DNA of 64,000 nt. Source: Paraspadella gotoi. Taxonomy: Eukaryota > Animalia > Chaetognatha. This document shows, piece after piece, positions 1 to 53,200 of this stretch. The stretch is taken from assembly GCA_051294375.1 (NCBI GenBank), contig CM119266.1, forward strand, positions 2,345,008 to 2,409,007. Reading direction: 5' to 3'. A model generated the notes under the pieces. That model worked only from the letters and a program-made list of their open reading frames with translations. It did not search any database and was not told the DNA's origin. Positions within the stretch are counted from its first letter, which is position 1; each line of letters opens with the position of its first letter. The translations under genes were made by a program, and so were the position numbers.

Positions 1-3000
1 GTTCGCTGCAAGAGAATCTGCACTTCCTCCATCTTTAATTTCTTGACGCGATTGAAGGAGACGTTGAAATCGTAGCGGAACGCCTCGTCGAAATCGCGCG
101 GCAGGCTCATCAAGTATTTGCTCGAGCAGTCGGCGCGAACTTTGTCTTCAGAGATTCGCAAACATTTGCATCTGTCGTCGCATTTGGAAACGAAACAAGA
201 ATACATCTCTGGAGTTGCCGAGGTGAGGCTCGATTTGGGCGAGGTGAGGCTGAAGTCAGTATCGGCGATCACTTTGCAGGTTGAGTTGCGAAAGGGAAAC
301 GAATCGTGATTCGTTTGACAGGAGATCACGTGATCGTCGGCGGAATTTTCCGTCGAGAGAGCAAGAGATTTGAGCAGCAAGGCCGAGTCTTGCATGTCGC
401 ATCCGTGACAAACTTGCCACTTTTTCTGATGGTGAAAATCTGGAAAGAAGACGCCGATGCCGGAGCAATGGTACAGTTTGACGAGGCAGAACAGGTGGCG
501 CAAGTTGTAAGAGACGAGGTCATTGTCCCCCAAGTCTGAGAAAAGGGCAATAAGAAGAGAAACGAAAAAAAAAGTGCGTACGTGATCTTTATTTTTATTC
601 GATTGTTTAAAGGACTTACCTATCGTGTATTTGTTGTTGGCCGTTATATTTTCGCACTTGAACATTTGTTCCTTGGATTTAATCAGTTTTACCAATCCAC
701 CTTTCATTCTCCTCAGAGATTCAAAATCACTTGGCAGAACCAAACTGCTGATGTTGTTTCTCTGGACACCAATGAACACCGACCTGTAGCCAACGTTTCT
801 GGACAAAAAGTCGTCGAAGATTCCGTCCGATTCGTTCTTGGCCTCAAACTCCGGCCACAGATTGAATTGCTTCAGCCGGTTGTCGTTTAACCGCAAAGCG
901 GACAAAGACGGCAGCAGACGGACCAAGTTGTCGATCCGTGAGATTTTGTTCTGAGCCAAAATCAAAAATTTGAGATTGGGCAAATTGTGAAACGTGTCCC
1001 CGTTCAAGGTTTCGATTCGATTGCCGACGAGATTCAAATGAATCAATCTGGGTAGATTTTCGAAGACTCTCGGTTCCATCGTGAAAATCCGGTTCATCAT
1101 GAGCGAAATCGTTGTCACGAATTTTAAATCGGAAAATATTCCTCGAGGGATCGATGCGAGTTTGTTGCTGTCCAGAATTATTTCCTTTAATGACATTCGA
1201 GCGAAGAATCCCTTTTGGACGAATTGGATTTCGTTGGCCGAAAGGTCGACCTCTTCGGTTTGATCCCCGACGAGGAAGTTGGACTCGTTCAAGAATCTCA
1301 ATCGACACTTCCAACAGCTCAATATCTTCAACTCGTCCGAGGTGACGTTGACGAAATCGACCATCGACTTCCACGCTTGCAGCTTGACGGCGTTGACGGG
1401 GCCTTGGAGGGACGTCAGAGGATTGGCCTCGAGGCTCAACTCTTTCAAAGTCGATTTGAATGCGAGAGGAATTTGAGTAAAGTTATTCTTCGTCAATTCC
1501 AATCTGGATCCTTCGGGAAGGTGGCTCAGCGCGCCGTCCGGGTCGATGACCGAGAGGCCTAGATGGCGCAAAGTCGCCAACGTCGGTTTGAGGAATCGAG
1601 TCCGAGTCCAGGAATCGGGAAGACGACCTCCGGGGACGCCTTTGCTGTTGTCGTAGCCGACGATGGAAAGGCTCGTGATGCTGTGAATTATGGAGAACGC
1701 GGGTGAAAATGAGTGTGAATATATCGGAATATTTCTAAACGACCACAAGAGCCTCATTCCAAATTTTTATGTTTTCGACGTCGCGGTCCTAAATCAACTT
1801 GATCAGATAAGCATATATCAAATCAAGACGATGTGGCGGTAGATTCACACCGCCTCACGTCCACCCTCGTTCAGCCAGCTCAGAGGGGGAACACGACATC
1901 CCAAGCGTTGTGTCCCATTCACAGTCCTAACGACTTCCCTCTGCGTTGGCAAAGCGAGTGACTGGAGGCGTCACTGAGGGTAGGAGGCCCCTGAAGCCAA
2001 CAGTGAGATGTCCCATCCCATTGGGCATCACAGACAACCCGGCTGTTGCTCTAAGTCTTTTATTCACTCACTTCATTTTCTTTCCCATCACGACGTTCTC
2101 AAGAATTCTCATGTCCTTCGAATGAATTTTGAGATTGATCAAATTTGGCGCCTCCAGGATCCAGGGGCGCGTAAAGTTGGGCGCGCAGGGGCGCCCGTAA
2201 TCGGGGCTGAAGTCCTTCAGTTCTAGAATCTTCAAGCGGCTCGTCAGGTTGGCCGAGAGCGGCGAGAGTCGGAAAGGGCGGTCGGCGTCGCAAACCATCC
2301 ATTTGATCATTAGCTATTTAACATGAAATTGAAATTTCTCTATATTACAAAATCATTATAATTTATATGCAAATATGTATCATAAATATTCATATGTATA
2401 CATATGTCATGTTTTTCTTTAATGAAATTGAAATTTCTCTATATGATAAAATCATTATAATTTATATGTAAATATATATCATAAATATTCATATGTATTC
2501 ATATGTCATGTTTGCCTTAAATGCCCATTTTTTTAAAAAAATTATGAAAAAGTTGACTAAATAAGAAAAAAAATTGGTTCAAAGTGATCAATTCAGATTA
2601 GGATATTGTTATCTATTCGTGATTTTATTCATAAAGGGAAATGATTGGGTTTTCGCATTGATTAGCACGTAATTGAACTAAATAGTTAATTAAAATTTTC
2701 GAGCATTAATTAAAACCGTTCGAAAACTTGACAATTAAAGGAAAGAGGGACCGTGAAGGGAAGTTCCTCCGCTCCTTTCTCCACGATGGCTGCGTCGACG
2801 ATCCTTTCCAGGTCCAACTCCTTCCTCAACAGATCCTCCTCCAAATCGCATCGGACGAGGAGACTCGATCGAAATTTGGTGGAGCGACACTGGGCGTCGC
2901 TGGAGTGAAGGAGCGAAAGAGCCAGGATCAAGAGACATAATAAGAGTAGTGGTTTTGTTGACGATGTCGTCGATAGGCGTCGCTTTTTCTTATCCTCGAT

Positions 3001-11977: not shown

Positions 11978-14435
11978 GAGAGAGAGAGAGAGAGAGAGAA
12001 GGAAAAAGAAAGGAAATGGTAGAAGGTTCAGAGAATTTATTTTTAATTTTCCTTTTATCTTTACTTTCCTCTTTCTTCACTTACCCCCAAAAACCGCCAC
12101 AGGTACATAAACGAGGCGAGCGAACTCACCCAAAAAGTCCTCCAACACATGGAAGACGTCAAAGTCCGCGAGATGCAGATCTTCGACTACAAAAAGAAAA
12201 TCGCTGAGGCCGAAACGAAGCTGAAGCAGCAACAGAACCTTTACGAGGCCGTCAGGTGAGGGTGGGTTGAGGCCAAGGGGGGGGTGGGGTTGGTTGGGTA
12301 GGTGTGGGGCAATAGGTAGTGGATTTGATCCCCGAATCTCCGATCCACGAGTGAACAATCGATTTTTCTTACATGAGGAACTTGGGAGGTGAGCCAAATA
12401 TGATTTGCAGTTGTTATCCACGGTGATGCTTCACTCGTGGATTGGCGGTTCGGGAATCGAATCCACGCTCTGAAAACAAAAAAATTAATTATACCGTTTG
12501 TGATAATGTTACATATGCATTGCGAGTGATTGACCTAGTTTTACGTAAAGTACTTTACGTAAGTATTTTTACTTACTTTACTTTACTTTACTTTCACTTT
12601 GTCGGTCCGTCGGTCCCACCCCGAAATCTTGTCGGTAAATCATTTTTATCACATCAGAACATCATAAAGTTAAAAAAATGATGCAAGTTGAAAAAATGAT
12701 GCAAATTTGAAAAATGATGCGAGTTGAAAAAATGATGCAAATTTGAAAAATGATGCGATTGAAAAAAATGATGCAAGTTAAAAAAATGATGCAAATTTAA
12801 AGAATTATGCAAGTTGAAAAAATTATGCAAGTTGAAAAAATTATGCGAGTAAAAAAAATGATGCAAGTGGAAAAAATAATAACAGTTAAAAAAATTATTT
12901 GTAATTAATTTATTTATTTATTTATTTATTTAGCTGATTACCGCTTAATTATCGTGGGCAGATCCGACTTTGTTTGCTCAAACTTGTTTTCCCTTGAAAC
13001 TGGCATTTCTTTTAAAACCTCAAGCTCAATCTATCCTTAATACCATCTGCCACGCCCACTTCCGGTCCCGCAGATCCGACCGTAACCTCTACTCGAAGAA
13101 CCTGATCGAGGCTCAAGACGAAATCGCGGAGATGAGGAGAAAATTGAAGATCATGAATCATCAGATCGATCAGTTGAAAGAAGAGATCACAGCGAAGGAG
13201 GCCAATTTGGTCAAGGAGCATTTGGATCATCAGAGGGTGGAGAAGGAGAAGGACGCTTTGAAGGTGGGGAGGGGGAGAGAGAGAGAGAGAGAGGGAGAGA
13301 GAGAGAGAGAGAGAGATAGAAAAGAAAAGAGGATTAAACAAATTTATACGAAAAGAGAGTATAAGAACTAGCGGAATGGTCCATTCTTCCGTTGCCAAGT
13401 TACCACAAAACCAAAAAAGTCATCCTTAACCCACCCACCCAACCTCTCCACCCACCCAACCCCTCCCCCCCAAATCAGGCGGACCTGATGCGCATGAAGC
13501 AACAGGCGGCGGAGAACAAAAACTACATCGAAGAACAAGAGGCGGAGCAGAGGAAGTTGCTTAAGATCATTTCGGAGGCGGACGCAGAGAGGTTGCGGCA
13601 GAAAAAAGAGTTAGATCAGGTGACGAGAGTATAACATCGATAATAATGTTAAAAAGCTTTTTTTAGCAATGTCAACTAACAAAAATGCCCAGATTTACCT
13701 ATCGAGTGTGCATTTTTTAAACTAAATGAACTTAGTAGTTTGATTTCTCACTTAAGGATATTGCTTAAGATTAACTGGCATTAGTAATATTACTACATTA
13801 TGAACAAATTATGAACGATTTATGTGCATTTTTAACATAAGTGGGTCAGACCGACGGACAGACATACAGACCGACCGACCGAAAAGTGAGTACTCGCGGC
13901 GCAACTAAAAATATCTTTAATGCGACTGATTTTCAGGTGATCAGCGAACGTGACATTCTCGGAACGCAGCTGGTCCGAAGAAACGACGAGCTGGCTCTTC
14001 TGTACGAAAAGATAAAGATTCAGCAGTCAACACTGAACAAGGGCGAGATTCAGTACAGGCGAGAAATAATAAAAACAAATTCAAATTAAACGTAGTTAAA
14101 GGAGATAAATTTAGATAAATTGAAACTATATCCCAATTTATTTTCAAACTTTGTAAAATAAGTATGATACAAAATAACAAAAGAGCAAACAACAACAAAA
14201 AATGACCCCGTTTCTCCCATCAGAGCGCGAGTCGAAGATATTCGACTCCTTAAACTGGAAATCAAGAAATTGCGTCGCGAAAAATCGATTCTGCAGAAGC
14301 GAGTGTCCAACGTGGATGATTTGCGACGCGAGGTCTTCCATCTGCAACGCGAATTGTTGCGAGAGAGAACGAGATGCAAGGCGTTGGAAGAAGAGTTGGA
14401 AAATCCAATGAACATTCACAGGTGGAGTGTAAAAG

Positions 14436-18154: not shown

Positions 18155-20979
18155 CTAAAAATCCTGATTGTTCATTCTGTTCTTTCCGGGTCCCATTCCG
18201 CCGCCACCGCCGCCGCCACCGCCTCGAGGTCCGGGCATGTTGTTACGCTGGCCCCACGGGCGGTTGTTCCACGCGGGGCGAGGGTACATTGGGGGTCCGT
18301 TGCGATGATAACCTGAGAAAAAGTGCAGAAAAATGAAAATAAAGCATAGGACAACGTACTTTCGCTTGGCCTAACAGAAAAACTAAATCCTACCCACAGG
18401 ACTTACCCTGCCCTCCGCGCCTGTAGCCTCCGCGCCAGCCGCCGCGGCCTCCTCTGCCGTGATGATATCGTCTCGCCGCCGCGACCGAAGGAACGCCGAA
18501 GGTCTCAGAGTTCAGGGCTCGTTCCTCTCTCCATGAGGGCCTGTTCGAACTGAGGGTGGACCCGGTGGGGGATAGAAAAAGAATTGATTAAGCGGATCAA
18601 GAAAAAAACGGAAAAGAACGCTCAGACTAAGTGCACTTTGAAAAAATAGTTATATATAAAATATTGAGTGCCTCACTCATTCCAAACATGTGTCCTTACC
18701 CGCCCTTAAGTCGTTCGGTGGCCTCGCAAGAGATGTTGTCAAAGAAGCTCTTGCTTTTGTTGTAGTAACCGTCGTCTTCCTCTTCGTCGACTTCGCTACC
18801 TTCCGGAATCTCTTCGTTCTCCATGTCAGCTCCATCCGAGGCCTGAAGGCGGAAAATCAAAATGTCAATTTAACGATACTTAATTTAATTCAATTCAATG
18901 ATTAATAAATTAGTCTTAGTACTAAACAGTAAAACAAACTTAAGTTTGGGGTAGAGCGGAACGAAAAAAATTTTCAAATTAAAAAAAACCGTACAATTAC
19001 GTAAATTAAAAACCATATTAACATTACTCCGTTGAAGAACTTGCTTCGAGTTTAATAAATACCGTATAATGTCATCAACTATATAACGATATTAACATTA
19101 CACCACTGAAAAACTCGCCTCGTTCCTCGTCTCCTTCTCCTTGGGCGAATGAGCCTCTCCATTGACGTGGTTGGTGGCGACACCGTCGGTGCTCGTCTTG
19201 TCGTCGTCGCTGATCTTGAGTTTTTGGCTCAACTCGTCCACGATCTTGTCCTTTTCGAATTTGGCGTTGGCCTCTTCGAAGTCGTAGTCGCCCTCAAACT
19301 TGAGGACGTCTTTGCCGCGCGAATTGCCGGACTTGTTCGCGGATCGCCCGCGTTGCATACCGTGGCCTAGTGGGCGAGAAATAGAATGTGTATTGTGCAA
19401 GGTATTTAGAATGTGACTTTTAATCTCTTAACTTTCACAATATCACTCCCTGAAATTAATTATACGGTAAAGAGCCTTAGACTCACCGGGCGGGGGTCCA
19501 CCGACTCTTCCAACTCGACCGCCGGGTCCCATTGGGCCCATCATGGGCGGTGGGCCTCGCGGGCCCAAGTTGTTCATATTTCCGTGATTCATATTTCCGT
19601 GGCTCATATTGCCATGGCTCATATTGCCATGGCTCATATTGCCATGGCTCATATTGCCATGGCTCATGTTCCCGTGGCCCATGTGAGGTCCCATGTGCAT
19701 GGGCACCTGCCGGAAAGGCCGGGGCGGCTGAGCGGAGGGAACGCCTCGAGTGGATCCTCCTCGAGAGCCTGGTCGGAAAAAAGAAGATTTTGAAAGATTT
19801 CAAATCAAACTTTTCACTACACATCCCACGACGCGAACCTTGGTTTCCGACGGACCGTTGTCCGACAGAATTCTCTTTGTTTTTGGGATCCCTGTAGTCT
19901 CGGTGATTACTGATCGGACCGCCAGGGGCGCGGTTCATGTTCCGACCGGCGACGTGGCCCACTTCTTGGTCCAACAAAGGCGGTGGGTGAGACGAAGGCT
20001 GCGCCAGATTAGCACCACCGGGAGACTGCGACGTTCTGCAGATAGGAGAGAAATGGTGATCTAACGATTATGTTGCTTATTATTAACATAATTTTTAATA
20101 AACTAGGATGACTATAACCTCGTGTTACGCCCGCACCTGGGATGTCCGGGAGAAGTCGGGCTAGCCTCGACTCTTTGCGGGGAAGTGCTGCGTGTTTCCT
20201 GTACATTGGCGGCATTCTGGACGGGAACGCCGGGTTGTGAATTTGCACCGTAATGTTGATGATGAACATGCTGTGTGACAAAAATTAAGTGTGAAAGATA
20301 AATTCAAGAAAGACTAATTGGCGGACGCACTGACTCTCCATCAGCCGACCTGGAAAGCAGGCTGAGGCGGCGGAGCTTGCGGCAATCCTCCGAGCGGTCG
20401 ATACGGTCCCGCAGACTGGCTCGACGGCGGGTTGGCCGGACCGATGGGAGCCGGAGCTGGCGGAACCGTCGTCGAGCCTCCGGGAGATGGCAGTTGGGCA
20501 GAGGATGTCGGAGAAAACGAGGTCGTTGATGGGACGGGCGCGGATTGCTAAAATTGGGAGGGATTTGAGGTTAGCTTATATTCCCATAGAGCTTGCTTTA
20601 CTACATCCCACTATTTCGCTCACCTGAACGATGGCAGGATCGTGCGGTAGGCAAGGTCCTTTCGGCCCCTCGCAAACGTGAAGATCTTTTATGTCGCTCC
20701 CGCGAAAGATGATGTACTCGTAGATCTCATCTCTCGGAGGAACTGGCCGCTCCGTAGGTCGAATTTCCGTCCCGAATGAACGCACTGGTAATTCGGGGAA
20801 AAACTAAAATGTTATTTTCGGAGGGAACATTAATAACATACAAAAAAAATCTTACCTTTCGCTAGAGCGACGGTACTTTCGTTCGGATCTATCGTATATA
20901 GAATGCCCTCGTATCTAATTTCCGCCTTGGAAATCAGGCTGATCTTACTCCCCAAATAGGGGATACCACCCCCGCTCAT
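18155..20979 (-). CDS. LSM14: LSM14 / RAP55 / Trailer hitch mRNA-processing-body protein
   Basis: N-terminal Lsm domain [31 protein letters not shown]...VRSFGTE...[19 protein letters not shown]-type motif ([16 protein letters not shown]), FFD box ([14 protein letters not shown]), TFG box ([11 protein letters not shown]) and an RGG-rich tail. Stop at 18155-18157. Confidence 0.96.
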
Positions 20980-21790: not shown

Positions 21791-24700
21791 ATGGCGGCGG
21801 GAGGGAAGCTTTCCGCGGGGGTCCGAGGTCGGACCCTCGAGAATGGACTGTTTCCCGGCATTTTGTCGCGTATTTCGTCGTCAGGATAACGTATTTTTGT
21901 GTTTTACTCGTTGGTACTGTGTTTTGCTGATATTCCACCGATTTTAGGGTCAACATTTGACGGTTGCATTATTGTACTATTTCCAGGGGTCTGCTGGTAT
22001 TATAACTTTAAAGAGGTGGTGGGATGAATTTTGAGAGTTGTTCTTTCGTCATTTTCTAATAAATACCTTCTAAATACTCCATGAAGCAATAGACATGGTA
22101 TTCAAATTTTCAGTGAAAACTTTTTTTTACATTTTTGTCAGCGTTTTATTTTTATTCATAACCTCATCCCTATGAATTAAGAAGAATCAATCTAAATTTA
22201 CTTTTTAAGAAGTAGTCCTCATTGTGAAAAGGTTTTATTATTTAAAAGTTTGAGAACGTTTGTGATGAGTTAAAAACCGTGAAATAATTCTATAAAGTTT
22301 AAAACCAGTTTCCACGATTTATTTTTACCGCAACATGGTTTTTCCCAAATCATTCGCTCTTTTAGACCAAGGCAACGATCTTAAAAGAGCGGGATAGATA
22401 TGGCTGCAGTTTTGAAAACCTCATAAAACGTTCGATTGGGCTAAATAATATAATACGTGTCTGGTGCAAACAATTGCTGGATTGGGAACTTCATTGCTAA
22501 CAAAAGCAGCGCACAGAAAATGCAATACTAGTTTAAATAAAATAAAAATTTCAACGTTCCCGGACGGGCACTTTCGTCTTCACTCTGCGGAACATCGGCT
22601 TCATCGGAGGCGCGCCGATTCGTTCCGCGCCACCCTACCAACTCTGCCGCGAGTGACTCTATGGGTTTTGGCGCGGAAGCCTCCACTCTCGACGCCGCCG
22701 ATGCCTGCCACCGTCTTCCAGTTCTTCGCCCACAAGTTCTCTTCCTCGCTGCGTCGTTGGGAGGGGATTGACCTCTCTATTTTTGCCGCCGTCTTCGATC
22801 CGCGCCGCCATCGACCCTTCCTCCGCCATCGTCGTCGTCTGCGCCGGTGACGCGAGACATGGCCAGCCCCGCCCTGACCCTCGCCAACGCCCTGAACGTT
22901 AACGCCAACGGTCCTAGTCAAGCCAACTCGGCGACTCTGACGGTCGGGACGCCGGGAATCGGCGCGTCTCAGGTCGCCATGGTACGCCCGGTCTCGGGAA
23001 TGGCCGTCGCGTCATCCCCCGGGGTCCAGGTGGTCAACATGTCCTCCCCGCACGCTCCGACGCCGACCGTCATCGCCGGGGCTCAACCTCAAAAGATCAT
23101 GGGCCCCAGGATCCAAACCGCGGCGACACTTAGGATCCAGCCCGCGATCGCCCCTCGACCCAATGTCATTCAAATGACCGGACAGGTGAGATAAGCCTCG
23201 TTTCATCACTGATTACTGAGCGATCGTTGTAAGCTTTTGCTCGGTTGGGGATTCTACGGATTAAGCCGGAATAAGTTGGAAACTAAGATTTCTACCTCTG
23301 TAGAGTTAACAGTGAAAAAATATTTTCAATTCCCATAATACATGACCATTTGATGACAAAAAAAGCTGCCATTTGCAAACCGGTAGTGATTTTATTCATA
23401 ATGATAGCTAGTTTTGTAGACCTAAACTATTTGTGTAGTCTAACTAATTTATCATTTAATTATTTTTTTAACTTTGAGTAAAATTTTTTTAAAAAGTTTT
23501 AATTAAAATTCGGGTAAATTTACTATTCGCCGACCGTAACCAACCTTAGCTACCATCGGTCGGTGCTTTAATTCCATAACTTATGTTTTCCCTCTAGCGT
23601 CCAGTTTTAGTTTGCGCAGTAATATAAATATTCATTTTAATTTTTTATTTTTTTAAATTTTTTTATACATTTTTTGTCAGTTGATAAAAAGGTATAGTTA
23701 GTATTATTCAAAACGAGGCCTTAAACCTCCAAAGTCAGGGGCAAAATAGCTCATTTATTAAATGAGGCGGTGTGAATATACCGCCACAGGATAATTATAT
23801 TAGTTGTACCAATTTCATAACAAGTTTTATTTAAAATTATTACTTTTTCGTACGTTTTTTGTTAATTTTTGTTAAAAGAAAATCTAGAATATAAATTTTT
23901 GTACGTGTTTAGTTGGTAAAAAAATTCTATGTTCGAATAATTGTTTTGAATTTATTTTAATTGCCATAGGGGTTAATTTCGCTGGTTAGGGGGGGTTTAG
24001 GGGTGGTGAGGGTTTAGGGTTAGGATAATTAAGTAATAATATTTTTTTTAAAATAAATATTTTAAATGGTTTTTCAAAACCTTGGTCGGCAAAAGCAAAA
24101 TTTTACCTAAAATGGCTCATCACAATTTATTAATAACCTTAAACTTGCTCTGTTTCAACTGTCTTAATTAAATTAATTAAATTATACTATAGTGTTTGCA
24201 AGTACATTATTCTTTTCATATTTGCAAGGGCTTTTAGAAACTATTGACATTGATACTTTTGTATTTAAAGATTCTTTAAAATTAACAAGCTCAAACAAAA
24301 ATTTATACATTTTTTAAATATACTTACAATGGACAAAAAAATTCTTATATAGCTTTATGCCTTAATAATTATTTTTTTACTCTTTATTTATATATAGGAA
24401 AGGCCAAACAATTTTTTTTTTAATTTTAAAACCAGATTCAGATAACTCCTAAAATGTGGTCTCCACAAAGTATAATTATTTTTAAAATATTTTTATCATA
24501 AGTCAGTCAAAAATAAGAAAAACCATAAAAAATCGTTATCATCTTTTGATAATTTTATCAGTTTTTTTAGATTTTTATTGAGAAAACGTAAAAATTTTTA
24601 AAAGCTGTAATTATATTTCTCGTTTAACTTTTGATGCTCTATCAGAATCCATCAAAAAATTTTAATATTTCAAAAAAAATATTTTTTTTTATATATTAAT

Positions 24701-27700
24701 ATAATAATTTTAATTAGGCTAGTACCCTCAGAAAAAAATAATTTTGGACAAAAAATATTTTAATACTTTAATCTATGCTCATGATAGATTATTTTATCGC
24801 TGTATACATAAGCATTTAAATTTCATCGGCTATGGCTACTAGAGTTAAAAAATTGACTCTAAATGTAGTTAATTTCAATATGAGAAATCCGTCTCACTTC
24901 TCTCATTATTAAATTAAATTAAAACTAATTAATTTGAAATTTGTACATTTAAGATTAATAAAATCACAACGGGTTTGCAAATAGTTATTTGTAAACTATT
25001 TTACTTAATATAAATTCTTTTTTTCCAATTCGTAATTTTGAAATTGGTTTCATTAGTTAAAATGAGCAAAAACTGAAGATTTTCTTCGTTTATCCATTTT
25101 CAAAGTTTAAAATTTGTCAACAAATATTTTACAACTGTATGCATTGATTCTTTTAATACCTTAATGTTTTAATACTGTACTTCACTAATTGACAGTTTTT
25201 CCAAATTAATACTTATAAGAAAAAAGAAAATTAATATCGCAAAATCTAACTTCAATTTGATAAAAGAATAAATACTGGCACGCCTTATAACAATTTATTT
25301 GGTTTAGACCTATTTTTACCGCCATTTGTGCAGAAAAATGTTTGTATAACTACTTAAGTAAAACATGAATAACCTTATGCCGGTAAACCTTAATCTATAT
25401 TTTTTTTAAATTTTTGTATTGGTATAGTGCTATCCTTATAATATAAAAATATTTCAAAATAGATTTTTCTATAGTTTCTAGTTTTGTATTTTTGAATTCC
25501 CTTTCAAAAGTTGACAAAAGAAAATCTACAGATTGATAATTTAAAGAAAATATAAAGCATTTTTAAAAATTCTTTCATTAAGTTGGTTAAAAATGTAAAA
25601 AAATATTTACATAACCCAAAAATTATATTTTGAGCTTCATATATTAATTTTTGTGACTTTTAACCCTCCTAATGAAATAATTTTTCAGTTTATTTTTTAT
25701 CAACTTTTTACGAGGAACCCAAATCTGTTAAAAATCTTTAAAAAATTAACCTTTGTAAGTACTATGTATAAATATATTTTAATGCGTAAATTGATTAATA
25801 ATTAAAAATTTTTGTTACTCAGTAATGTTCAGATGAACTGTTGTTTCTTTACTTTAGGAATTTTTATTCAAGCTAAATTTAGGATTTTCACCTCGCTTTA
25901 ATGGCTACTAGTGCGACATTTAAGTTAGTTCTCTTTAAGTAACGTTTTTGAAAAGAATCGCCCAATTAATTTTAGAGATAAAACATTATTTTGGTTGTAC
26001 TAATTCCATGTGATTGGTAGCGCGGCTTGGTCCCTTCTAAACCAAAAATAGTTTGTGATCGCTAAATTTCACCGTATCCTGGCGATGTACCTGAGGGATT
26101 GTTGTGAAATTGAGTTTTGCCAAGTTCATGTTCATTTCTTTAAATTATATTGTTTTCATTATTAATTTGCTTCAAAATGTTCCCTTTCAGAATCAACAAC
26201 CGGTCCAACTTCCACCAGGATATACCATTCCACCAGGAACACTGCTTGTAAAAACCGATACCGGTCAGCTACAACTTATTCACACAGGCGCCAATCAAGC
26301 GGCCTTCATTACTCCGGGACGTAACGTTACCGGAACCACGCAATATAGGTTTGTACTATAAACCTTTATTTTTAAATAAGAAATAAAAAATCAATACATT
26401 GAGGCGCAAAAAAAAGAAAACACTAAGATATAGAAACATAAAACATGTATTTAAAAATACATAGTGTCTTTTTTTTTGGCGTTCTTAGATTGGACATTTA
26501 CAGACTGCACTATGCGTATGGTTAAAAAAATAGACAAACATTGTCTTCCATTTAAAAAAAATATCTTCTATATTTTATGAAATTTAATGTTGATAAACAA
26601 AAACGGAATCAAAATCTAGTTTCTGGAATATGGGAACAGTAAATATATTTTGAGTTATATGGTAGATTGTTTATTACTTTAGATTACTGCAAAGTTTTAT
26701 TTTTCCATTTCATGTTATAGTATATGATAATTTATTAGTGAGAAAGAGGAGCTCTTCTCATTAATGATAACACTAAGATATTTTTGTTGCTATTAATCGA
26801 CTCTTAGCTCGGGCTCAAGATTGCGCGAATTTCTCAGTAATAAAAAAAGACCAACTCTCTGGGCAACTTTTTACGATTTTAACATATTCATTATTCAATA
26901 TTCAATATGTAGTGTTTTTTCAATATCATTCAATATTCATTAAAAAATGTATCTATATTTCAGTACATCCGAATGAATTACAACAATTTTTTTTCTGATC
27001 GGTTCATTCCTGCCTTCGTTCGTTTCGCTGTGATATAAACTGTTTTTCAAGACATAACAGAAATTCTGATTGGTTGCCATACGCCTGATGTCACTTTTTC
27101 TTGGCATTTTCGGTAATCATATCTGCTACTAAGCATATTTACTATTTAACTTCGTTCCCTTCTGCCCTCGATGCTTTCAGAATGACAGCGTTTTTTTTAT
27201 TTAAAAACAAAAGACACTAACAACAATAAAATGTCAAAACCTAAGTTATAAGAAACTGTTGTGAATAAACGTTCAAGAACGTTCCAAGATAAGATGTCCA
27301 TAAAACCAAAAACAGTAAAATTAAAAAAATAAAAACATCTAGTCTAAATAACGTTAATAACGTTCAAAAAGTAATGCGCGAAAACAAAAAAAATACCGTT
27401 ACATTTAAAAATGTTAAGAACTAATTCATTAAAAACGATAAGAACAAATTGTTAGATAATTTATCAGTCAACAGCAATGACAAAATCCGTTTGCTTTCCC
27501 TTCAAAGAAATGGTTTTTGAAACTCCAATTTAATGTTTAATTATCCCGGATTATTCTTTTCAAAGAAGTATAGTTCTGAAATCATGCCATCAACAATACT
27601 GTCATCCAAGCATCGGTTTAATTTTTTAACTTTGAAGTATAATTTTTTTTCATGATATATCGTAACATTTTCTTTACAAATGCAAATAAACTTCTTAATA

Positions 27701-30700: not shown

Positions 30701-33700
30701 CTTTTGTAGTCAAAAACATTGTACATTAATACTTTGTGAAATAGAATACAGTAAAAAACATTTTCGTTAAAATAATAACATTTAAATTATTAAAAATTGT
30801 TACCTGTCTGCAATACTCATCAGTTTTAAAAACGTGACTCGTTTATTCAGATTCGCCCAAGCGATGCCGCCAGCTGCGGCCGCTGCGCCGCACCCGCCCA
30901 ATGGTACGGCGGCGCCGACTCCAGGCGCCTCAGCCATCGCCGTCGCGGGCGTGGTGCAGCAACCGCAGAGCATCGCCAGTGTGCCCAGCGCCGCCCCGAA
31001 TCACGTTCCATCCATCGCATCGGCGCAGGTGAGACGATTGGGTTCAAATTAAAGTCGTGTTTTTGGTTCATCGAAGCCTCGATTATGATAATTATTATGA
31101 AATCGAGAGAATTTGGAAGTTTCTCTGTGAGTTATGTGGTTGATTTCTTGTCCAATGTCCATTAGAAATGCAACTCATGTCATTGGTTTTCCCTTCAGCT
31201 CCGTCCGTAACGGGCGGCCGTGACGACGTTTCGTCGGCCCGTTGCGGCGTCGTCGGTTCCGGGACGATGCCTCCACCGGCGCTGCTCCCGGGCGCCCACT
31301 TTCATTCGGCTCAACCGCCCAAGTTCGGCGATGACCTCAACGCCGCTGCACATGCCAAAAGTTAGTAGTATGGGCAACAGCCGGGATTTGCCTGTTGATG
31401 CCCATTGGGATGGGGGCAATCTCACTGTTGCTTTGGGGCTCCGACCCTCAGTGACGACTCGCAAGTACTGGCGCGGTTCCCTAGAGACGGGTCTCGCTTT
31501 GCAACGCAGACGGGAAGTCGTTAGGACTGTGGATGGAACACTACGCCTGGGATGCGTGTGTTCCCCCTCTGGCAATGGATTTGGCTGAAGGATGAGTGGA
31601 CGTGAGGCGGTGTGGATATACCGCCACAGGATCCCCGGCCAAGACATCACTCAGGTTCCTCAAGCCTGAGAGGTGTCTGACAAGGACTGTTACCATAGTG
31701 GAGAGAGAGAGAGATGAGCGCGAGTTTGTGGGGGCATAGGCGTTTGTCGTACTACCCCAGGGGCATAGGCGTTTGTCGTAGCGTGACCCGAAGTCGGCAG
31801 GGCATAGGCCGTTTGTCGTAGCGTACCCTGAGACAAGGTTGCGTGTGTTCGATAGTAGGGCTCACCACTTATGGCAACAGCCGGGTTGCCTGTGATCGCC
31901 ATGGGATGGGGCATCTCACTGTTGGCTTTGGGGCTTCCGACCCTCAGTGACGACTCCAGTCACTGGCGCGTTACCCTAGGACGGTCTCTGCTTTGGCCAA
32001 CGCAGAGGGAAGTCGTTAGGACTAGTGGATGGACACTACGGCCTGGATGGTGTGTTCCCCCTCTGAGCCAATGGATTTGGCTGAAGGATGGTGGGAACGT
32101 GAGGCGGTGTGGATATACCGCACAGTAGCCACTTAAATATGCTCGAATATACTTTTTATTGATAGGGAAAGCCAAGCTAGGATGTGTGAAAAACTTATCT
32201 TGTAAAAGGGATGGAGACTTTAACCCACTAAAGTCTGTCCAAAATCAGCGGCAAAATTGTTTTTTAATGAAATGAATGACAATTTTTACCTTCGTTGTAC
32301 CAATTTCATACTCAATTACTCAATACTCATTCGCTACTCGCTTTTGTCTTTACCTTTTTTCGCTAATATTTACATTTTATATTTTAGCGAGTGCGTTGGA
32401 AAACGTGAAAAAGTGCAAAAACTTTTTGTCGACGCTGATCAAGTTGGCCGGAAGTCAACCCCAGGAAACGATTAAGAACGTTAAAGAACTCATTCAAGTG
32501 AGTAATCGTAATAAACTCAAACTCAAAGTATTGCGTATATATAGCTTTTGTTTCTCTTCTTCGCAGGGTTTAATCGACGGGAAGATACAACCGGAGAAGT
32601 TCACCGAGCAGCTTCAAATAGAGTTGAAGTCAAGGTGATGCCGACGAATCATGTCATCCAATCCAATTGCAGCCTCCTTACCTTTCAATCGTCCCCCTCT
32701 TACTTCTTCAGTCCGCAACCTTACCTGGTTCCGTTTCTCAAAAAATCCCTGCCGATGCTACGTCAGTCTCTGGCCGCCGGTTCATGGCCATCGAGGCGGT
32801 TCGAGCGCCTGCGGGTTTTCCGGTCGCCAGTATCGCCAGCGTGGCCGGAGCGACGTCGCTTCCAGGGGCATGGCAGTGATGACGAATCAGATGGGAGTCC
32901 CAGGGCAGCATCCGCTCATTCTGCAGGTTCATAAGGGAGAAACCGAGACCGACATAAACAAGTTTTATAAGTTTGTTTATTTTAATTTAACTGTATACAT
33001 TATACAGTGTACTACTGTCCTTATTGTTGAAACTGTGTTAATAAGGCGTAGTAAAATTTCTAAATTTAACTTTAATTAAAATTCTAAAAGTGAGAGAACG
33101 AATAATATTAAACTAATAAACATCTATGTAATAAAAATTTATAATAAATTTTACAATTTACGCAGTAGGCCATATTTATACTAGTACTATCCAATAAATG
33201 TTAAAATTTTAAAACAGTTTTTTCTAAGATTTTTTTGCAGATTTGAATTCGTCAGAAAAAGTTGATAAAAAGAAATATATCTTTTTAAAAAATTCCTTCA
33301 TTAAGTGGGTCAAAAATTAGAAAAAGCTATATTTTAAACTGAAAATTAACTTTTTATATATCAATATAGTTTAAATTTTTAACCCCTTAATGAAAGAATT
33401 TTTAAAAATGACTTATATATTTCTTTTATCAACTTTTGACGAGGAATTCAAATCTGCAATCAAAATTAAGAAAAGCCAATGTTGAATTTTTGCAATTTTA
33501 TAAGGATAGTACTATATATAAATATAGCCTACTGCGAAAATTGAAGAACATAAAATAATTTTTTTTTATAAATTAATATTACTGATGGTATGTTGTTCAT
33601 AATTGACATTTAGAATTTTTATATGTAACTTTCACTACGCCTTAGTGTTTAATTATAAGATTGCTAGTGAAGTTAATAAATTAACTTAACCAATTAAAAT

Positions 33701-40900: not shown

Positions 40901-43900
40901 CTCTGGAGAGAACGCGAGAGCGAGATTGATATCGGTCTCTACAGAGATTTAACGCGATAATAACCGAAAATAAGTTTGAGCAAACAATGCCGGATCTCCC
41001 CACCATCTTTAGCGGTAATTAATTAATTAATTAATCAGTCAATTCATTAATTAGTTTGATCCGACCTGTCTGTTTTTAGGTCTTTTCGTCACTGACCATA
41101 ACAAAAGCAACGACGATGATGGGGACGACGACAATAATGCCGATAACGATTAATTGATTGAATAATTAATAGATTGATTTTTGATTAATTCACTGATAAA
41201 TTAATTAATAAATTAATGATTAATTAATTAGTATTGATTTATTAATTAATACGTCTTGCATTTACAAATAATATAAAAAAACAAGCATAATCAATTAGTA
41301 AAACAGGTTTTTTGTTTTTTACATTTTAACTTATTTTCACTCAGACGATTTCATTGAAACTTGATATATAATAATATATATATATAATAAATACAATCCC
41401 CCCATCCACTCATGAGTAATTAGCGTTCAAATAGTGAAATATATATATTTTTTTCTTCCATTTAAACTCATTTCCACTCGGACGATTCTATCAAAACTTT
41501 GTTTCCAGCTTAATCACACACTTTTCTACCCACATACAAAATTTCAAGTCAATCGCCCCATACAATCATGAGTAATTGGCGTTCAAAGCTAAGGGGGTTC
41601 GGACGGACGAACATCAATTTTTTTTTCATAATTTATCATAATTTGATTTTCTGACATGATTTAAGTGACTTACCGATAAGATTGGGGGGGGCGGACCGAC
41701 GGACCGACAAAGTGAATTATAGAGCCGGAATCTGCTGTCAGCAGATCCGGCTAAAAACCTTGGATCTCTTGCCCTTATTTACCTTTCGTGAAGATGGAGA
41801 AGGCGTATCGTCTCGTGCTGGAAACGCACCTTAAACAAGGGGGTGGGAATTGTATAGAGAGGCCATCGACTTACCCTTCCGAGAAGGGTCTTCAGCCCTT
41901 CATTACGTATTCGGCTCTTTTTGTTCTCTGCCAGTCGGGGAAAAGAAAAAGTTAATCGGCTTTTTTCGGTGTTCGGTCGCGAGAAGATAGCTTCAGTGTC
42001 TGAACTCACCTACCTTACCACCACCACCACAATTTTTCGCAAACACTACTTTCTCGCCAGGTTGTTCCTATTTCCTTTCACCCTCGTCGTTTTTCCAAAG
42101 CCTATCATCTTTGACTTTCAGTCCATGTGTTTCTGTACGAACTTTTACGCTAATGCTTCGTGTACCGTGCATTAAAAGTTCGTTTTTATTTTACAGTTTT
42201 CTAACTTGGTGTAAAATTTTCTTTCGATTCGTTGTTTGGATTTGTTGTTGCCAATAAAAATCTTATTTTGTCTCTCAGTTTTCTAACTTAATTCTTTTTC
42301 TTTTTTGGACGACCTTTTCGCCTTAATTATAGCCCCAAGGTTTACAGTTGTCATTCAAGAGAGAGAAAGTGTGTGTGTTTAAAAAAAAACTGGTTTGATC
42401 ACTCAAACTTAAACAAAGAATCGAGAGAGCAGTTTACTGGAGATCTTTTTCCCTCTCTCTCGATCTCTCTCTCTCTCTCTCGAGTCGACTGGCCTCCAAA
42501 CCAGTGAGAATAGCAGTTAAATTTTGTTTTATTTTCGGAAAATGTTTCGATTTCAGAGTTTTGTTTTCTTGACAATCCAAAACCGAACCTACCGAACGAT
42601 CCTGACGATCTGTCCGTCCGACAGTCCGTAGCTTTGGCAGTCGTTCTCTCTCGATCTCGAGAAGGACTGTTTGTTGGGGTAAGTATCAAGTCTGATGGTG
42701 GTTTTCCGACCGCTCGGTCCCACCTCCACCATTCGGAAGGCGACGCAGTATCGCCTCTTCCACGGGGATCGCATCGCCTGGGGGGGTAGTGAGAGTTAGT
42801 AACCACTTTGTTGTTAATGTTATCGAAAAGTAAGTCTCGAAACTCCAGTGCGAATGTGGAGTCACCAGTGGTTTCGTGAGTCATCGAGAAATACTTTTGG
42901 GGTAGTGGTCGATATTTGGTTTTTTTTTAACACTCAGAAGTTTAAATATTTTATATTAAATAAGTAATTTATGCAACTGATTGTAGATAATCAATTCATA
43001 ATTATATAATATCAATGGAACATTTTAATTTTGAATAAAATAGGCGTTTTTTAGCGAAAAAGATTTGAATTTTATTGAACAACGATTTTATTTTAAATTA
43101 AATTAAATTTTCTTTATATTTTCCTCTTCTCGGGTTCTCTCGTTTTATTTTGCACTCTCGATCGTGATACCCCGCATATTTTTGGCACTATTTCATATTA
43201 ATTAAATTTTGTGTGTGTATCTCGTTCTACAGCAACACGGATATAATTTCTATTTAAAAAAACAATAATATAAAACAAAAAAGGAAATAAAATCGGGCAG
43301 CGGCCATGTCCGAGCTAGATCAACTTCGCCAGGAGGCGGAGTCGCTTAAGTCGCAGATTGAAGCCTCGCGTCGCAAAGCGGCCGACGCGTCCCTCGTCGA
43401 GGCCGCCCAACGCCTCGACGCCCTCGGACGCCTGCAGTTTCGCCAGCGCCGCACGCTACGCGGACACCTGGCCAAGATCTACGCCATGCACTGGGCGGCG
43501 GACTCGCGTAACCTCGTCTCCGCCTCGCAGGACGGGAAGTTGCTCGTCTGGGATTCGTACACGACGAATAAAATTCATGCCATTCCGCTCAGGTTTGTGA
43601 GTTGACTTTGGACAATGGAAGTTTGTGTCGAATTAATTATGAGTTTGATGTGATTTGTTGGGGATGTCTCACATTGTGAGTTTTTGTGACTTGTACTTAA
43701 GCAACAAGTTTGACCAATGAGCAATCGATCCATAAAATCACTTCGGGACATAAGGTCACTTTTTCTTGAATGGTTTCTTATTGCGTTTCTTCTGTTCTTT
43801 TTAAAGTATTCCCATTATATAAGAACACATTAAACAGTAAACATGCATATAATACGTATAATTATATATAATTATTCGTATATCTTAACTGTAAACGAAC

Positions 43901-45548
43901 TCCAATCGGACCTGTAATTATTCATATGGCTCCCCCCCCCCATTTTTTCCTCCAGATCGTCCTGGGTGATGACTTGCGCCTACGCGCCATCCGGCTCCTA
44001 CGTGGCTTGCGGCGGCCTCGACAATCTCTGCACGATCTACTCGCTCAAGAATCGCGACGGTAACGTCCGCGTCTCGCGCGAATTGTCCGGCCACAGCGGC
44101 TACCTTTCCTGCTGCCGCTTCGTCGACGACGCCCACGTCCTCACCGCCTCGGGCGACACCACCTGCTCCCTCTGGGACGTGGAGACGAGTCAGAGCGTCA
44201 CACGATTCTCGGGCCACGCTGGCGACGTCATGTCCGTCGCTCTCGCGCCCGATCAGCGGACCTTCGTCTCGGGCGCCTGCGACGCCTCCGCCAAGCTCTG
44301 GGACATTCGCGACGGATCTTGCAAGCAGACGCTGTCGGGTCACGAGCTCGACGTCAACGCCGTCTGCGTCTTTCCCAACGGCAACGCCTTCGCCACGGGC
44401 AGCGACGACGCCACCTGTCGCTTGTTCGATTTCCGGGCGGATCAAGAAGTGGCGCGCTACGCTCACGAGACGGTGGAAACGGGGGTGACGTCGGTGGCGT
44501 TCTCGCGATCGGGCCGGTTACTGTTTGCCGGATACGACGACTGCAACGTCCTTGCCTGGGACGCGCTCAAGGCGGAGAGAGTGGGGGTCTTGACCGGGCA
44601 CGACAATAGAGTCAGCTGTTTGGGGGTGACCGAGGACGGGATGGCGTTGGGCACGGGGTCGTGGGACGCCTTTTTGAAGATTTGGAATTGAAGACGGAGA
44701 GGGGATTGGCCTAATGGAGGTTGGGTGTCGAGTTTTGCGGGGGACGGGTTGAGTTGTCGCGAGTTGGAGTCGTTCGTTTAATTCGTTTGTTTCGGGCGGG
44801 GGGGGGGTGGCTTAAGTCAACTTCGCAGTTTTTTGAAAATTGAGCGAGTCTTTAAGTATGAATGGTATGTTATGATTTGAAATTGTCTAGTCAAGGTAAA
44901 TTTGTAATCGTTTTACGGAATTGAATCGTTAAATCGTGCCAAAAGGATGTTCTCCTGTCAATTGAGGAATATCCGTGCGTTGGTAATCCACACTCGGCTC
45001 GCCAATGAGAACAAGATTAATTTATCTAGGAGATAAAGTCTTTATTAAAGAGAGGCTTTATACTTTAAAGCTAATCGGCTTTAGGTCTGAGTGCGCGCAG
45101 AGGGAAACCCACTGCATTGGGAAGCGCATTCCCTTATTATGATTGTTTAAATGTTCATATGTATTATTTTTTTTTATTGACGCTTATTGCACAAAAGAAT
45201 TTACCTTTTTTATAACATTTAACTGTTGCTTGTAAAGTAAACAAAAAACAAAAAATGTTTGTACACTCATTGAACGGAGTTGGATACAAAATGTTCTTTA
45301 AAATCGCTGGTCGCTGGTTTGGGCTGATTTGATCAAAAACAAACAATAAAAACACGGTCGTAGATTAGCTTATACAATTTACGAACTGTAAATGAATTCT
45401 ATCATTTTCTTTATTTTATTATGTTGGATAGATTGGTCCGATGTAAAATACTCGCCTTGAAAAGACCCTTCTCCCTCGTGTGATCGCTCTTGACATCGAG
45501 AAAGCCAGATATTTCCCCGTCGTTTCCGTATTGAGAAATAAAGCTCAT
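37984..45548 (-). CDS. PH + IRS-type PTB domain docking protein (DOK/IRS-like adaptor)
   Basis: Approximate exons 45548-45456, 42777-42593, 41830-41783, 40902-40768, 40201-39975, 39755-39013, 38918-38228 and 38159-37984 splice in frame. PH domain: [10 protein letters not shown]...PWKRRYCV...IRLDTY...RYAFSIFT...[19 protein letters not shown] domain: [14 protein letters not shown]...[11 protein letters not shown]...EFRFFS. Disordered tail with YDVP x2, YDHV and YQRL tyrosine motifs. Confidence 0.8.
40969..41757 (+). mobile_element. Helentron-associated (HINE/DINE-1-like) non-autonomous element
   Basis: 5' aa(c/t)aagtttgagcaaacaatg, subterminal cggatct, (attaatta)n tract, ggac/gacc microsatellite, 3' hairpin gccggaatctgctgtcagcagatccggc, then taaaaa. 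Homologues at 53271, 56846, 12594 and 13840. Family assignment is inferred from structure. Confidence 0.75.
43306..44691 (+). CDS. GNB1: Heterotrimeric G-protein beta subunit (G-beta-1 class, divergent), 2 coding exons, nested in a DOK-like intron
   Basis: Exons 43306-43592 and 43956-44691: [12 protein letters not shown]...[16 protein letters not shown]...[10 protein letters not shown]...PLR|[13 protein letters not shown]...[31 protein letters not shown], with seven WD40 repeats. The symbol denotes family, not proven orthology. Confidence 0.95.
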
Positions 45549-50200: not shown

Positions 50201-53200
50201 TTACAGGTTTAGAAAAGTACATTTATTATGACAAAAAATAATTTTCTTTAGAGGAGCATTTTATAATATGAAGACTTTTCTGTATAACTTAATGATTTAA
50301 ATATATTTTCGTGATTTAATCAAAGCCATCCCTCCATTTAGTTCCTCCCTTCAAGTCGTACGCCGATGAGCCGGAGGCGGCGCCCACGCCTTCCTCGACG
50401 TCGTCGGCGGGGTCTTCGAGGGAGCACACCTTTGCGCGTCCCGTGCAGCCGGTCGTTGCCGCTTCCACCGCCAAAACGCCCGCGCGGCTCACTTCAGGGT
50501 CAGGGTCTCGGGCCACCATCCGCGCGGGCTCGGCGCACGGCGGATTCCCCAAGTCCGATTCGGGTGAGTGGAGTTGGTGACTTGGGAGAGCTGATTTTTT
50601 GGAGGCATAGTTGGACCTGAGTGTGTGGGTGAATGTCGGCTGATTTTTGTGTGGCCTTTATTTAGTGGATCGGAGTATAAAACCGTTTGACGATAAAATA
50701 AAAATTTTAATACCGTTTAAAATTACGCGCGCCTTAAATAAAAATGGGTGGAAAATACTCTGAACTATGCCAAGAATTTTTATGCTTCTCTTTAACTTTT
50801 ATAGATGTATCATTTGATAAATTACAATCTTGTGAAAAGAAACACTGAAGAAGGCGGCATCCACCTCCTGTTACTTGTCACTTTCTCATCAAGGTTTTAT
50901 TTTCTTATTTTTTTCTATTTTTTTAGTCTCTGGAGCAACGAACGAAGACGAGTTTCTCTCCGCCTTCGAAGACGTCCAGAGAGTTCAAGTTAGTTGTAAC
51001 CATTTTTGTATTTCATGGATGACAAATCGAATGATTCCATACATTCCTGTTTGCAGATTTATTCCGCGAAGGATTTAGAAGAATCTATGCGCCAAGTTAA
51101 AGACGTGTTAGCGGACGGTAAGTTCCAAGAAATAGGGGAATAATGTTTTATGGCAACAGACGGGTTGCCTGTGATGCCCATTGGAATGGGGCATCTCACT
51201 GTTGGCTTTGGGGGCTTCCGACCCTTAGTGACTCCTGTAACTGGCACGGTTACCCTAGAACGGTCTGGCTTTTCCAACGCAGAAGGAAGTCATTAGGACA
51301 GGATGGAACGCAACACTTTGGATGGTGCGTTCCCCCTCTGAGCCAATGGTATTGGCTGAACGATGGTGGATGTGAGGCAGTGTGAATATACCGCCACAGT
51401 CAGTTATTTTCGGCATCGAGTCTTAATGTTTTTCCACTTCGTTTTCCAGGCAACCTCGACTGGGAGAAACGCGTGGTGGCCATCAAGCGACTCCGCGGCG
51501 TCGTCTTGGCCGAGGGCCACACCAACTTTCCCGACGAGTTCTTTCTCTCCCTCCGAACCCTGGAGAATCCATTTATGACCACGGTGAAGGATCTCCGGTC
51601 GCAGGTCGTGCGAGAGGCCTGCGTCACCATAGCGTGAGTATAAGGAGGAAAGAGAGTGTGTTTATTGTTTTTATTATTATTATTATTATTATTATTGACT
51701 GTTTAAATCTACCGAGTACGGTGATTAAAAAGGAGGGATGGCTTAAAATGTCATTCGATCTTGCGACCCAGCCAGAACGACCATAGCCCTCTAGCTTCTC
51801 TCGCGAATAATTGTTAAAAATCGCGAAAAAATACTCTGTTTCTGACTTTTTTTGTTCGATCAATTAAGCCTTTCTAAAAAACAAACTTAGAAACTGGTTT
51901 TGGGAAAAACACAATAAAAATGATGTGAAACAGAACTCTAAATTGGTCACGCTCAAAAATTTTGATTTTTCTTTCTAGATTGTTTCGTTTCATTCCTATT
52001 CTAAAAGTCAACATCTATTGTTTCGTGATTTATTCCTACTCTGGCTTTTGAATTTAATGACACGATGCTAATTGGAAAGAACATTCTAACATTTAATGAA
52101 CCTATGCAGATCATTAATATTTAATGTGTACAATGCGGCGACTTGTTAATCACACACGTTTTACACTATTAACTAATAATATCGATATTAACCCCGGTAA
52201 CAAATAATAAACGGAAGTTAATTTAAGCGTTAGTTTTTTCCCGGTTGAATAATGAATTACATTCGGTGACTTTATATTTTTGAAACGACATCCATGTATG
52301 CATAAAATGTTCATAGAAAATATTTAACGTCAACACGAAGCCGTCGTGAGTAATGTAAATTTATTTTGTGGCGAATCTGCCTTTACAGAGTCGCCACGGT
52401 CTCGCTATTGAGTTCAACCGTGACGGCGGCGGCAATTGTTCCAGCCTCGACAGAATTTTGACATTGTCCGTTCGTTTTATGAGATTTGGGTCGCAGTTCG
52501 TTTTCCTTCTGTCCCTTTTGGATCTGCCTCACTTCGTCTGCGTTTTGAGACTTGACTTCGACGGACGTTGATAACGTTTCCTCGACAGCCAGCGTTGGAT
52601 TCTATTGGATGCATAGAATTGCTTGTGTATTAATATGTATATATTATTTTATCATTTTAGTAGAAAAATAAAAAAAAACTGTTTGCTTACCGTTTTTTTG
52701 TCTCCCTTGGAAACCGGTGAAAAATCGTCTTGAGCGAAAAGGGTGTTCTTTTTCGAGGAAGGTTTTTTGCCAGAGATATCCCATCTCTTTTTGGTTCCTG
52801 AATAAAAAAACATCGTGCAACGCTTCGCCTTCGCTTTTCATTTCTTACTCTGTCTCGATATTTAACGCACCTCGAATGTGAATAACTTCTAAAAAGGTTT
52901 TTCGAAAACCCGATGAAAAGGCACAATAGAGCAAGAAGTTGGTCGCCGAGTTTATGGTGGCGCTCATTATTGCCACCGAATTCAGATCGATCAGCCAGTT
53001 TCTCTGTGCAATCGAATTATTCAAAATTTATCTAGACATTGGCTTGTAAATTTCAAAAGTAATCGATGAGTTCTTGCTCACCTTGTTACTGTCTGTAGGG
53101 GTGGTGAGGATACTTCCTTGGTAACTGAGCGCCCAGATGATCGTTGCGACAATGAATGGAAGTTGGCAAACCAAAAAGAGAATAACGACTCCCACGCAGA

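Follow-up and report, generated by a model that had tools for sequence, protein, structure and literature searches.

Can an animal genome harbour a long terminal repeat (LTR) retrozyme, and can such an element use a ribozyme other than the hammerhead? LTR retrozymes have been described from plants, with hammerheads, and the retrozymes of animals as non-LTR hammerhead repeats (bioRxiv 10.64898/2026.07.22.740005, PMC7761336). The question is raised by a 756-bp element of the chaetognath Paraspadella gotoi, located at positions 31369..32124 of a 64,000-nucleotide stretch of DNA (contig CM119266.1 of assembly GCA_051294375.1, positions 2,345,008 to 2,409,007), which we refer to as the window and within which all coordinates are given. 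An earlier sequence-only reading had proposed a miniature LTR retroelement with a self-cleaving, twister-like motif in each LTR. Our analyses indicate that the element is very probably a protein-free LTR retroelement of the terminal-repeat retrotransposon in miniature (TRIM) type, and we lean towards the view that it functions in the manner of plant LTR retrozymes, a twister taking the place of the hammerhead, with cleavage and circle being predicted.

A miniature LTR retroelement in a TAF4-like gene

The element is the one full-length locus of its kind in the window and lies early in an intron of a TAF4-like gene, the joint from 31336 to 32388 in run X9 leading into the TAFH exon. Its parts are as follows.

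31369..32124, minus strand (sense): whole element, 756 bp
31870..32124, minus strand: 5' LTR, 255 bp, TG...TA ends, terminal inverted match 5/6
31629..31869, minus strand: internal region, 241 bp
31369..31628, minus strand: 3' LTR, 260 bp
31365..31368: left copy of the target-site duplication (TSD) GTAG, near the start of the TAF4-like intron
32125..32128: right copy of the TSD GTAG
31850..31867, minus strand: primer-binding site (PBS), TGG-initiated, starting 2 nt past the 5' LTR
31629..31643, minus strand: position of the polypurine tract (PPT), longest purine run 5 nt, ending 3 nt before the LTR, 7/15 purines
31731, 31760 and 31800: three copies of a 21-nt motif inside the internal region
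near 31700-31718: short GA microsatellite in the internal region
32059..32069 (approximate), minus strand: A-box-like motif, one mismatch to the A-box pattern, upstream of the predicted cut

These measurements bear out the layout first proposed, namely direct repeats of ~255 bp around 241 bp (measured as 255 and 260 bp), GTAG on both sides, termini of the TGTGGC/GCCATA type and a TGG-initiated PBS 2 nt from the 5' LTR; the poor PPT and the presence of the repeat at three more window loci were not part of that proposal. The LTR starts with TGTG(G)C and ends in a GCCATA-type motif, with the same termini at all three window loci that have a whole LTR, and a 4-bp TSD match is expected by chance with a probability of ~0.004. 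The PBS agrees with honeybee tRNA-Trp at 11/13 positions, compared with 5-8/13 for four other tRNA ends (tRNA ends from the supplement of PMC10886601). Open reading frames of 74-150 aa overlap the element, and the four of the five listed frames that were scanned gave no Pfam match, in agreement with the predicted lack of coding capacity; a search of the 64-kb window for reverse transcriptase and gag motifs also retrieved no match. Neither a B box nor GGTTC was found when the LTR was scanned for them, a tRNA search gave no match and Rfam scans of the LTRs gave no 5S match. The element is <1 kb long and non-coding and has two LTRs, a 4-bp TSD and a PBS beside the 5' LTR, features by which TRIMs are recognized.

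The element entered as one unit

Four of nine listed sequencing runs were compared with the window over 31000-32500 in the form of assembled contigs, three of them from DNA (X1, X4 and X5) and the fourth being X9. In X1 (record 1), 31336 is joined to 32124 across 25 letters, and in X4 (record 8), 31296 is joined to 32124 across 61 letters, the element being absent from both. The 25 letters in X1 consist of 22 exon letters, as judged from the X9 joint, and 3 intron letters, leaving a single GTAG. Because the X1 and X4 contigs cross the site empty, the element must have entered as a single 756-bp unit; X1 and X4 are one sample, possibly the window's own. Records 15 and 21 of X5 agree with an empty site, yet they are two separate contigs.

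The family to which the element belongs is abundant and polymorphic. Both LTR-internal junctions are covered by contigs (for example, X4 records 10 and 12, X5 record 16), and across X1, X4 and X5 depth relative to the flank was 484-702x in the lowest internal bin and 2,196-6,487x in the lowest right-LTR bin, ratios that are no copy number and are taken only as very many copies with LTRs in excess. Depth drops stepwise from the LTR to the internal region, which is multi-copy in its own right on the evidence of contig depth and junction contigs. The empty-site contigs and the multi-copy internal region together substantiate a miniature LTR retroelement. Run X9, in which splice joints are present, also covers the element; its internal/LTR depth ratio was 0.33 versus 0.11-0.26 in the DNA runs. 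Contigs give no strand, ends or level, and the ratio is not informative on expression. At 31845, some contigs (loose ends, X5 and X9) match 25 PBS-proximal bases and then continue into other internal sequence, which may represent other subfamilies or a helper element.

The two LTRs are 86.5% identical (blastn). Under one gap-friendly scoring they differ by 33 gap columns and not a single substitution; applied to the other five pairings of the four window copies, this scoring gives 12-23 substitutions. The gaps between the two LTRs are probably read errors. At 31953/31457 both LTRs have a letter from which 542,378 of 544,873 depth in X1 differs, and at another position, in the terminal hairpin, they share a letter that differs in all three other window copies. 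These shared private letters and the absence of substitutions argue that both LTRs were copied from one template in one event, and a chance tandem does not explain them. With LTRs free of substitutions and empty alleles, the insertion appears to be recent. The assembly is error-rich over 31037-32124, where 300 flank bases differ from X1 by 9 substitutions and 14 gaps, and is clean from 32124 onward; it looks as if the filled allele rests on few long reads, and the insertion may be rare or heterozygous.

A predicted type-P5-like twister in the LTR

Of the twister-like motifs proposed for each LTR, the one in the 5' LTR has a complete core with P2 one base short, and the one in the 3' LTR has a broken core as assembled. 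The predicted parts of the motif are given below.

31921..32001, minus strand: type-P5-like twister motif, 5' LTR
32001-31996 with 31926-31921, minus strand: P5
31986-31985, minus strand: general-base G and A
31984-31982, minus strand: 3-bp pseudoknot strand CCG
31981-31974, minus strand: palindromic P1, 8 nt
between 31973 and 31972, minus strand: predicted cut in UAA
31970-31968, minus strand: P2, one base short in the 5' LTR
31967-31966, minus strand: GC pseudoknot
31965-31945, minus strand: P3
31943-31941 with 31932-31930, minus strand: P4
31940-31933, minus strand: L4
31427..31506, minus strand: counterpart of the motif in the 3' LTR, in the assembly interrupted by single-base indels; homologous cut near 31479/31478

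Viral type-P5 twisters were fetched as the source of the model consensus. The Rfam Twister-P5 consensus runs P2'-GA-GGG-P1-UAA-P2-GC-P4-UCCC AA GC-P4', and the LTR runs P5-AAA-P2'-GA-CCG-[8 nt]-UAA-P2-GC-P3-GGG-UCGG AA GC-CCC-AAA-P5, so that the order and spacing of GA, UAA, GC and GU..AAGCC agree with the consensus. The motif is circularly permuted, since the strands missing from a partial Rfam match (see below) lie upstream. The catalytic A(+1) and A(+2) and the general-base G of L1 are all present both in the 5' LTR and in a solo LTR at 51.2 kb, as are both pseudoknots, P3, P4 and P5. The two pseudoknots, GC/GC and CGG/CCG, have Watson-Crick complementarity, and L4 reads UCGGAAGC; relative to the CCC/GGG of the consensus, both sides of the 3-bp pseudoknot have changed and the pairing has been kept. 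The twister-type register places the predicted cut between 31973 and 31972, matching the position of ~31972 given originally. The same core letters occur in loose-end lines of X1, X4 and X5, conservation of the core within the family being judged from the listed variant rows and loose ends (47 substitution and 100 indel rows lie outside that listing).

A descriptor of the core found two sites in the window, both of them LTR copies (the 5' LTR and the 51.2-kb solo). In comparison, it hit 9 and 17 of 100,000 LTR shuffles, and shuffles of the window held 0.025 sites on average. Letters and spacing alone were matched by 10 of 50,000 shuffles, and a looser form by 208 of 50,000. A stricter descriptor had missed the 5' LTR, which has an extra base before P2', and the core descriptor was relaxed at that point. 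When the catalytic strands were held single-stranded, the 5' LTR folded unprompted into P5 (6 bp), P3 (7 bp), P4 (3 bp) and P2 (2 bp). Whole-LTR folding was only mildly better than that of shuffles (z -1.6 to -2.6). The P1 palindrome has a predicted self-duplex energy of -11.0 kcal/mol. A test on ~2,600 natural twisters of type P1 showed tolerance of defects in P1, P2 and P4 but not of those in the pseudoknots or catalytic bases (PMC11662667), and P1 of the twister is dispensable (PMC5408937).

A type-P1 twister register using 31953 was dropped as wrong, and hammerhead, hepatitis delta virus-like and pistol readings did not fit the respective consensus by eye; Rfam scans of the window, element and LTRs gave no hammerhead match. 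Type-P5 twisters are numerous in viral contigs, where 12 of the 15 loci scanned reach the Rfam Twister-P5 threshold.

Evidence that weighs against a functional ribozyme

Several results count against this assignment. Rfam scans gave no match at gathering score, none at E up to 10 for the whole element and no twister match for the 51.2-kb solo LTR. The 5' LTR alone gave a partial twister-P1 match (model positions 11-56, 13.8 bits versus 67.2, E 3.7) that is non-significant and that served to set the register of the motif, and Rfam Twister-P5 matched neither of the LTRs scanned, although 12 of 20 viral loci reach it. The core descriptor was composed after the motif had been seen, and a similar pattern had served to select its 12/12 positive controls. 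A competing fold in which the core is buried is better by 7.5 and 7.3 kcal/mol, the former value being that of the 5' LTR; among viral twister controls, 11 of 12 have a fold gap below 7.5 kcal/mol (0.8-7.1) and one has a gap of 10.7. The complementarity of CGG and CCG is not fully independent evidence because the competing fold uses the same pairing, and P1 is an 8-nt palindrome for which no hairpin is predicted. In the 3' LTR as assembled, the core is missing the U that precedes the cut, along with an A from L4, and escapes the descriptor; at some of these places the run contigs have different letters, and the indels are therefore probably read errors. Pattern searches yielded 11 loci (5, 1, 3 and 2), of which none was a natural twister with the CGG/CCG pseudoknot; since they have neither twister stems nor any other resemblance to the element, all are taken as chance. 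Folding of the predicted circle is only slightly better than that of shuffles (z -1.55, with 8/100 as good), and one of the two solo LTRs of the window has lost the ribozyme core.

The reading of the element as an LTR retrotransposon also meets difficulties. Its full-length structure was read at one locus only, and the PPT is poor, with a 5-nt purine run and 7/15 purines in error-rich sequence. The PBS has 2 mismatches to honeybee tRNA-Trp, the comparison tRNA being that of the honeybee and not of the host, and neither of the two solo LTRs has a 4-bp TSD.

Proposed mechanism

In the mechanism that we favour, a transcript would arise from the LTR or by read-through and would be cleaved at the predicted site between 31973 and 31972 and at the matching site of the 3' LTR, releasing a monomer of ~495 nt without terminal redundancy. 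Because the monomer loses this redundancy, circularization would be needed for reverse transcription, following the model for plant LTR retrozymes (PMC4918200). A host RtcB-type ligase might join the monomer into a circle; for animal hammerhead retrozymes, ligation of this type has been demonstrated in vitro (PMC7229834). The circle would then be copied from a tRNA-Trp-like primer by a Gypsy reverse transcriptase, and a Gypsy integrase would insert the copy with a 4-bp TSD. A Trp primer and a 4-bp TSD are marks of the CsRn1 lineage of Gypsy (PMC3630058, PMC3587641), and the Trp-like PBS and 4-bp TSD therefore suggest a CsRn1-like Gypsy as the likeliest helper. The self-complementary 8-nt P1 may also pair the two LTR ribozymes of one transcript, which would then cut as a dimer; amphibian hammerheads with a palindromic helix III cut better as dimers (PMC7229834).

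A more far-reaching version would see here an animal LTR retrozyme independent of the plant ones, in which a twister was taken into an LTR and the palindromic P1 acts as a two-copy switch, such that only transcripts with both LTRs cut out a circle and solo LTRs in host introns stay silent. We put this forward tentatively, as a conjecture with more chance of being wrong than right.

Alternative explanations

Could the element move without cleaving itself at all? It would then be an ordinary TRIM that captured a twister, now an inactive relic, and whose mobility depends on a normal linear, terminally redundant LTR transcript. A ribozyme is not needed by animal TRIMs with 4-bp TSDs (PMC10886601), and an active one in thousands of intronic copies would be costly; the 7.5 kcal/mol advantage of the competing fold, the missing P1 hairpin and the non-significant Rfam match fit such a relic, and deletion variants across the motif do exist, in run contigs and in the copy at 1832. 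The joints of these deletions, however, are found at a depth of tens to hundreds, compared with ~100,000 for the LTR, and the catalytic and pseudoknot letters are all intact in the fresh insertion, in the older solo LTR and in the loose ends of three runs, and we regard a relic as unlikely. Somewhat less probable still is a twister that is active at the 5' end only, where the 5' LTR would free the element from a longer transcript and a 3' end inside the motif of the 3' LTR would leave a linear RNA with a short terminal repeat (R). The P5 permutation places ~50 nt of the motif downstream of the cut, and a transcript ending there would therefore keep R and escape the second cut; R of Cassandra is indeed as short as 18 nt (PMC10886601), and twisters form the 5' ends of Perere-3 RTE elements (PMC8501958). 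No terminator or polyadenylation site was identified in the stretch past the 3' LTR cut, though, and the palindromic P1 suggests two motifs acting together, while plant LTR retrozymes of the same layout yield circles (PMC4918200).

Since animal retrozymes are derivatives of Penelope-like elements (PLEs; bioRxiv 10.64898/2026.07.22.740005), the locus might be a PLE (Naiad) derivative, a 1.5-unit tandem of a non-LTR retrozyme with repeats that only resemble LTRs, and the poor PPT and the solo LTRs without 4-bp TSDs would be in keeping with this. Such an origin seems very improbable in view of the termini, which are fixed in three of three loci and have a terminal inverted match, the TGG-initiated PBS at a distance of 2 nt from the repeat, the 4-bp TSD and the step down in depth from the LTR to the internal region; animal non-LTR retrozymes are described without a PBS and with longer TSDs (PMC7229834). 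We give the least credence of all to a chance tandem of two dispersed-repeat copies or an artefact assembled from an error-rich read. Solo copies are common, 31037-32124 is error-rich relative to the contigs and no contig of the runs spans the filled site, but the TSD is exact, the private letters are common to both repeats and a multi-copy internal region is joined to LTRs in other contigs. The specific alternative entertained earlier, a chance tandem of two short interspersed elements or miniature inverted-repeat transposable elements (MITEs), finds no support in the empty site and the multi-copy internal region.

Comparison with known elements

Taken as a candidate twister-type LTR retrozyme, the element resembles plant LTR retrozymes (PMC4918200) in having two LTRs with a ribozyme motif (here a predicted one, with the 3' copy broken as assembled), a non-coding internal region, a PBS by the 5' LTR, a 4-bp TSD, solo LTRs, polymorphic insertions and a presumed Gypsy helper. 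It differs in its twister-type motif and animal host, as opposed to a type III hammerhead in plants; in its size, with an LTR of ~255 bp and a monomer of ~495 nt compared with 300-400 bp and 600-1000 nt; and in its Trp-like primer and poor PPT where the plant elements use a Met primer. Plant LTR retrozymes yield circles (PMC4918200), whereas cleavage and circle are here predicted from sequence. Because the type III hammerhead is absent, the element falls outside LTR retrozymes as they have been defined.

Animal TRIMs, including Helenus and Ajax, share with it a length of <1 kb, two LTRs, a PBS and a 4-bp TSD, as well as Trp-primed examples, an excess of solo LTRs and a structured-RNA module in the LTR (PMC10886601). 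That module is a tRNA or 5S promoter in Helenus, Ajax and Cassandra (PMC10886601) and a predicted ribozyme fold here, and the element is neither Helenus nor Ajax because it has no B box and no tRNA or 5S match. With type-P5 twisters (RF02684; PMC5408937) the motif shares the permuted order, the catalytic A and G, the GC/GC pseudoknot, the L4 letters, P3, P4 and a closing P5; it departs from them in its CGG/CCG pseudoknot, a P1 cut to an 8-nt palindrome, a weak P2 and a score below the Rfam threshold. Perere-3 (RTE) T-variants of Schistosoma are likewise a case of a twister with non-standard P1 in an animal retroelement, but there the motif is single, and the element that bears it at its 5' end is autonomous and of the non-LTR class (PMC8501958), in contrast to a permuted motif inside the LTRs of a non-coding LTR element here. 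Metazoan non-LTR retrozymes are similar in host, in being non-coding and in forming a ribozyme-bounded unit of a few hundred nt (PMC7229834; bioRxiv 10.64898/2026.07.22.740005), and also in a weak palindromic helix, which dimer formation rescues in amphibians (PMC7229834). They are, however, type I hammerhead tandem repeats tied to PLEs and without LTR, PBS or 4-bp TSD (PMC7229834; bioRxiv 10.64898/2026.07.22.740005), whereas all three are present here and a hammerhead is not.

Gypsy-dependent TRIMs with 4-bp TSDs have been described from animals before (PMC10886601), and it is the ribozyme motif in the LTR that is the new part. No twister-bearing animal LTR retrozyme was found in the open literature, with subscription journals, Repbase and Dfam outside the search, and supplementary twister lists (PMC11662667; Roth et al. 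2014) may hold the motif without its context. Should the favoured mechanism be true, the design of LTR plus ribozyme plus circle would have evolved more than once and would not be tied to one ribozyme class, and eukaryotic twisters would gain a role beyond the 5' ends of RTE elements. The family would also offer a genomic source for the twister-bearing circular RNAs of metatranscriptomes (bioRxiv 10.1101/2022.07.19.500677). As Rfam does not call this motif, it would further suggest that elements of this kind are going unnoticed.

Other copies and genomic setting

Three further loci in the window carry the LTR or part of it.

51149..51398, minus strand: solo LTR within an intron of CLASP, intact at both termini; twister core complete, with a predicted cut between 51252 and 51251, stems decayed, no 4-bp TSD
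1832..2053, plus strand: solo LTR, both termini recognizable, ribozyme core deleted, no 4-bp TSD
23763..23788, minus strand: LTR fragment, first 26 bases

A search of viral and metagenome contigs with the LTR terminal motif retrieved no matches. At all four loci (1832-2053, 23763-23788, 31369-32124 and 51149-51398), the ribozyme appears to lie on the strand opposite to that of the host gene, the host strand being firm for two of them (TAF4-like and CLASP) and inferred from open frames for the other two. This placement fits selection against sense insertions, with n=4; LTR elements often show an antisense bias anyway.

The gene content of the window comprises TAFH, a rhodopsin-type receptor, CLASP, CFAP58 and G-beta and marks the host as an animal, TAFH being an animal-specific domain. 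A second high-depth repeat (32223-32325) lies directly downstream of the element in the same intron. An AT-rich element with long terminal inverted repeats, MITE- or foldback-like, is present in three copies (33073-33646, 4425-5010 and 25423-25900), and a further dispersed repeat family of ~790 bp, 65-82% alike, occurs at 40969-41757, 53271-54022, 56872-57359 and 12593-12991. Open frames at 19483-20067 encode tandem EPWQY (minus strand) and AHIAM (plus strand) repeats without a Pfam match. Finally, 43918-44691 holds an intronless G-protein beta subunit frame of 257 codons, possibly a retrocopy.

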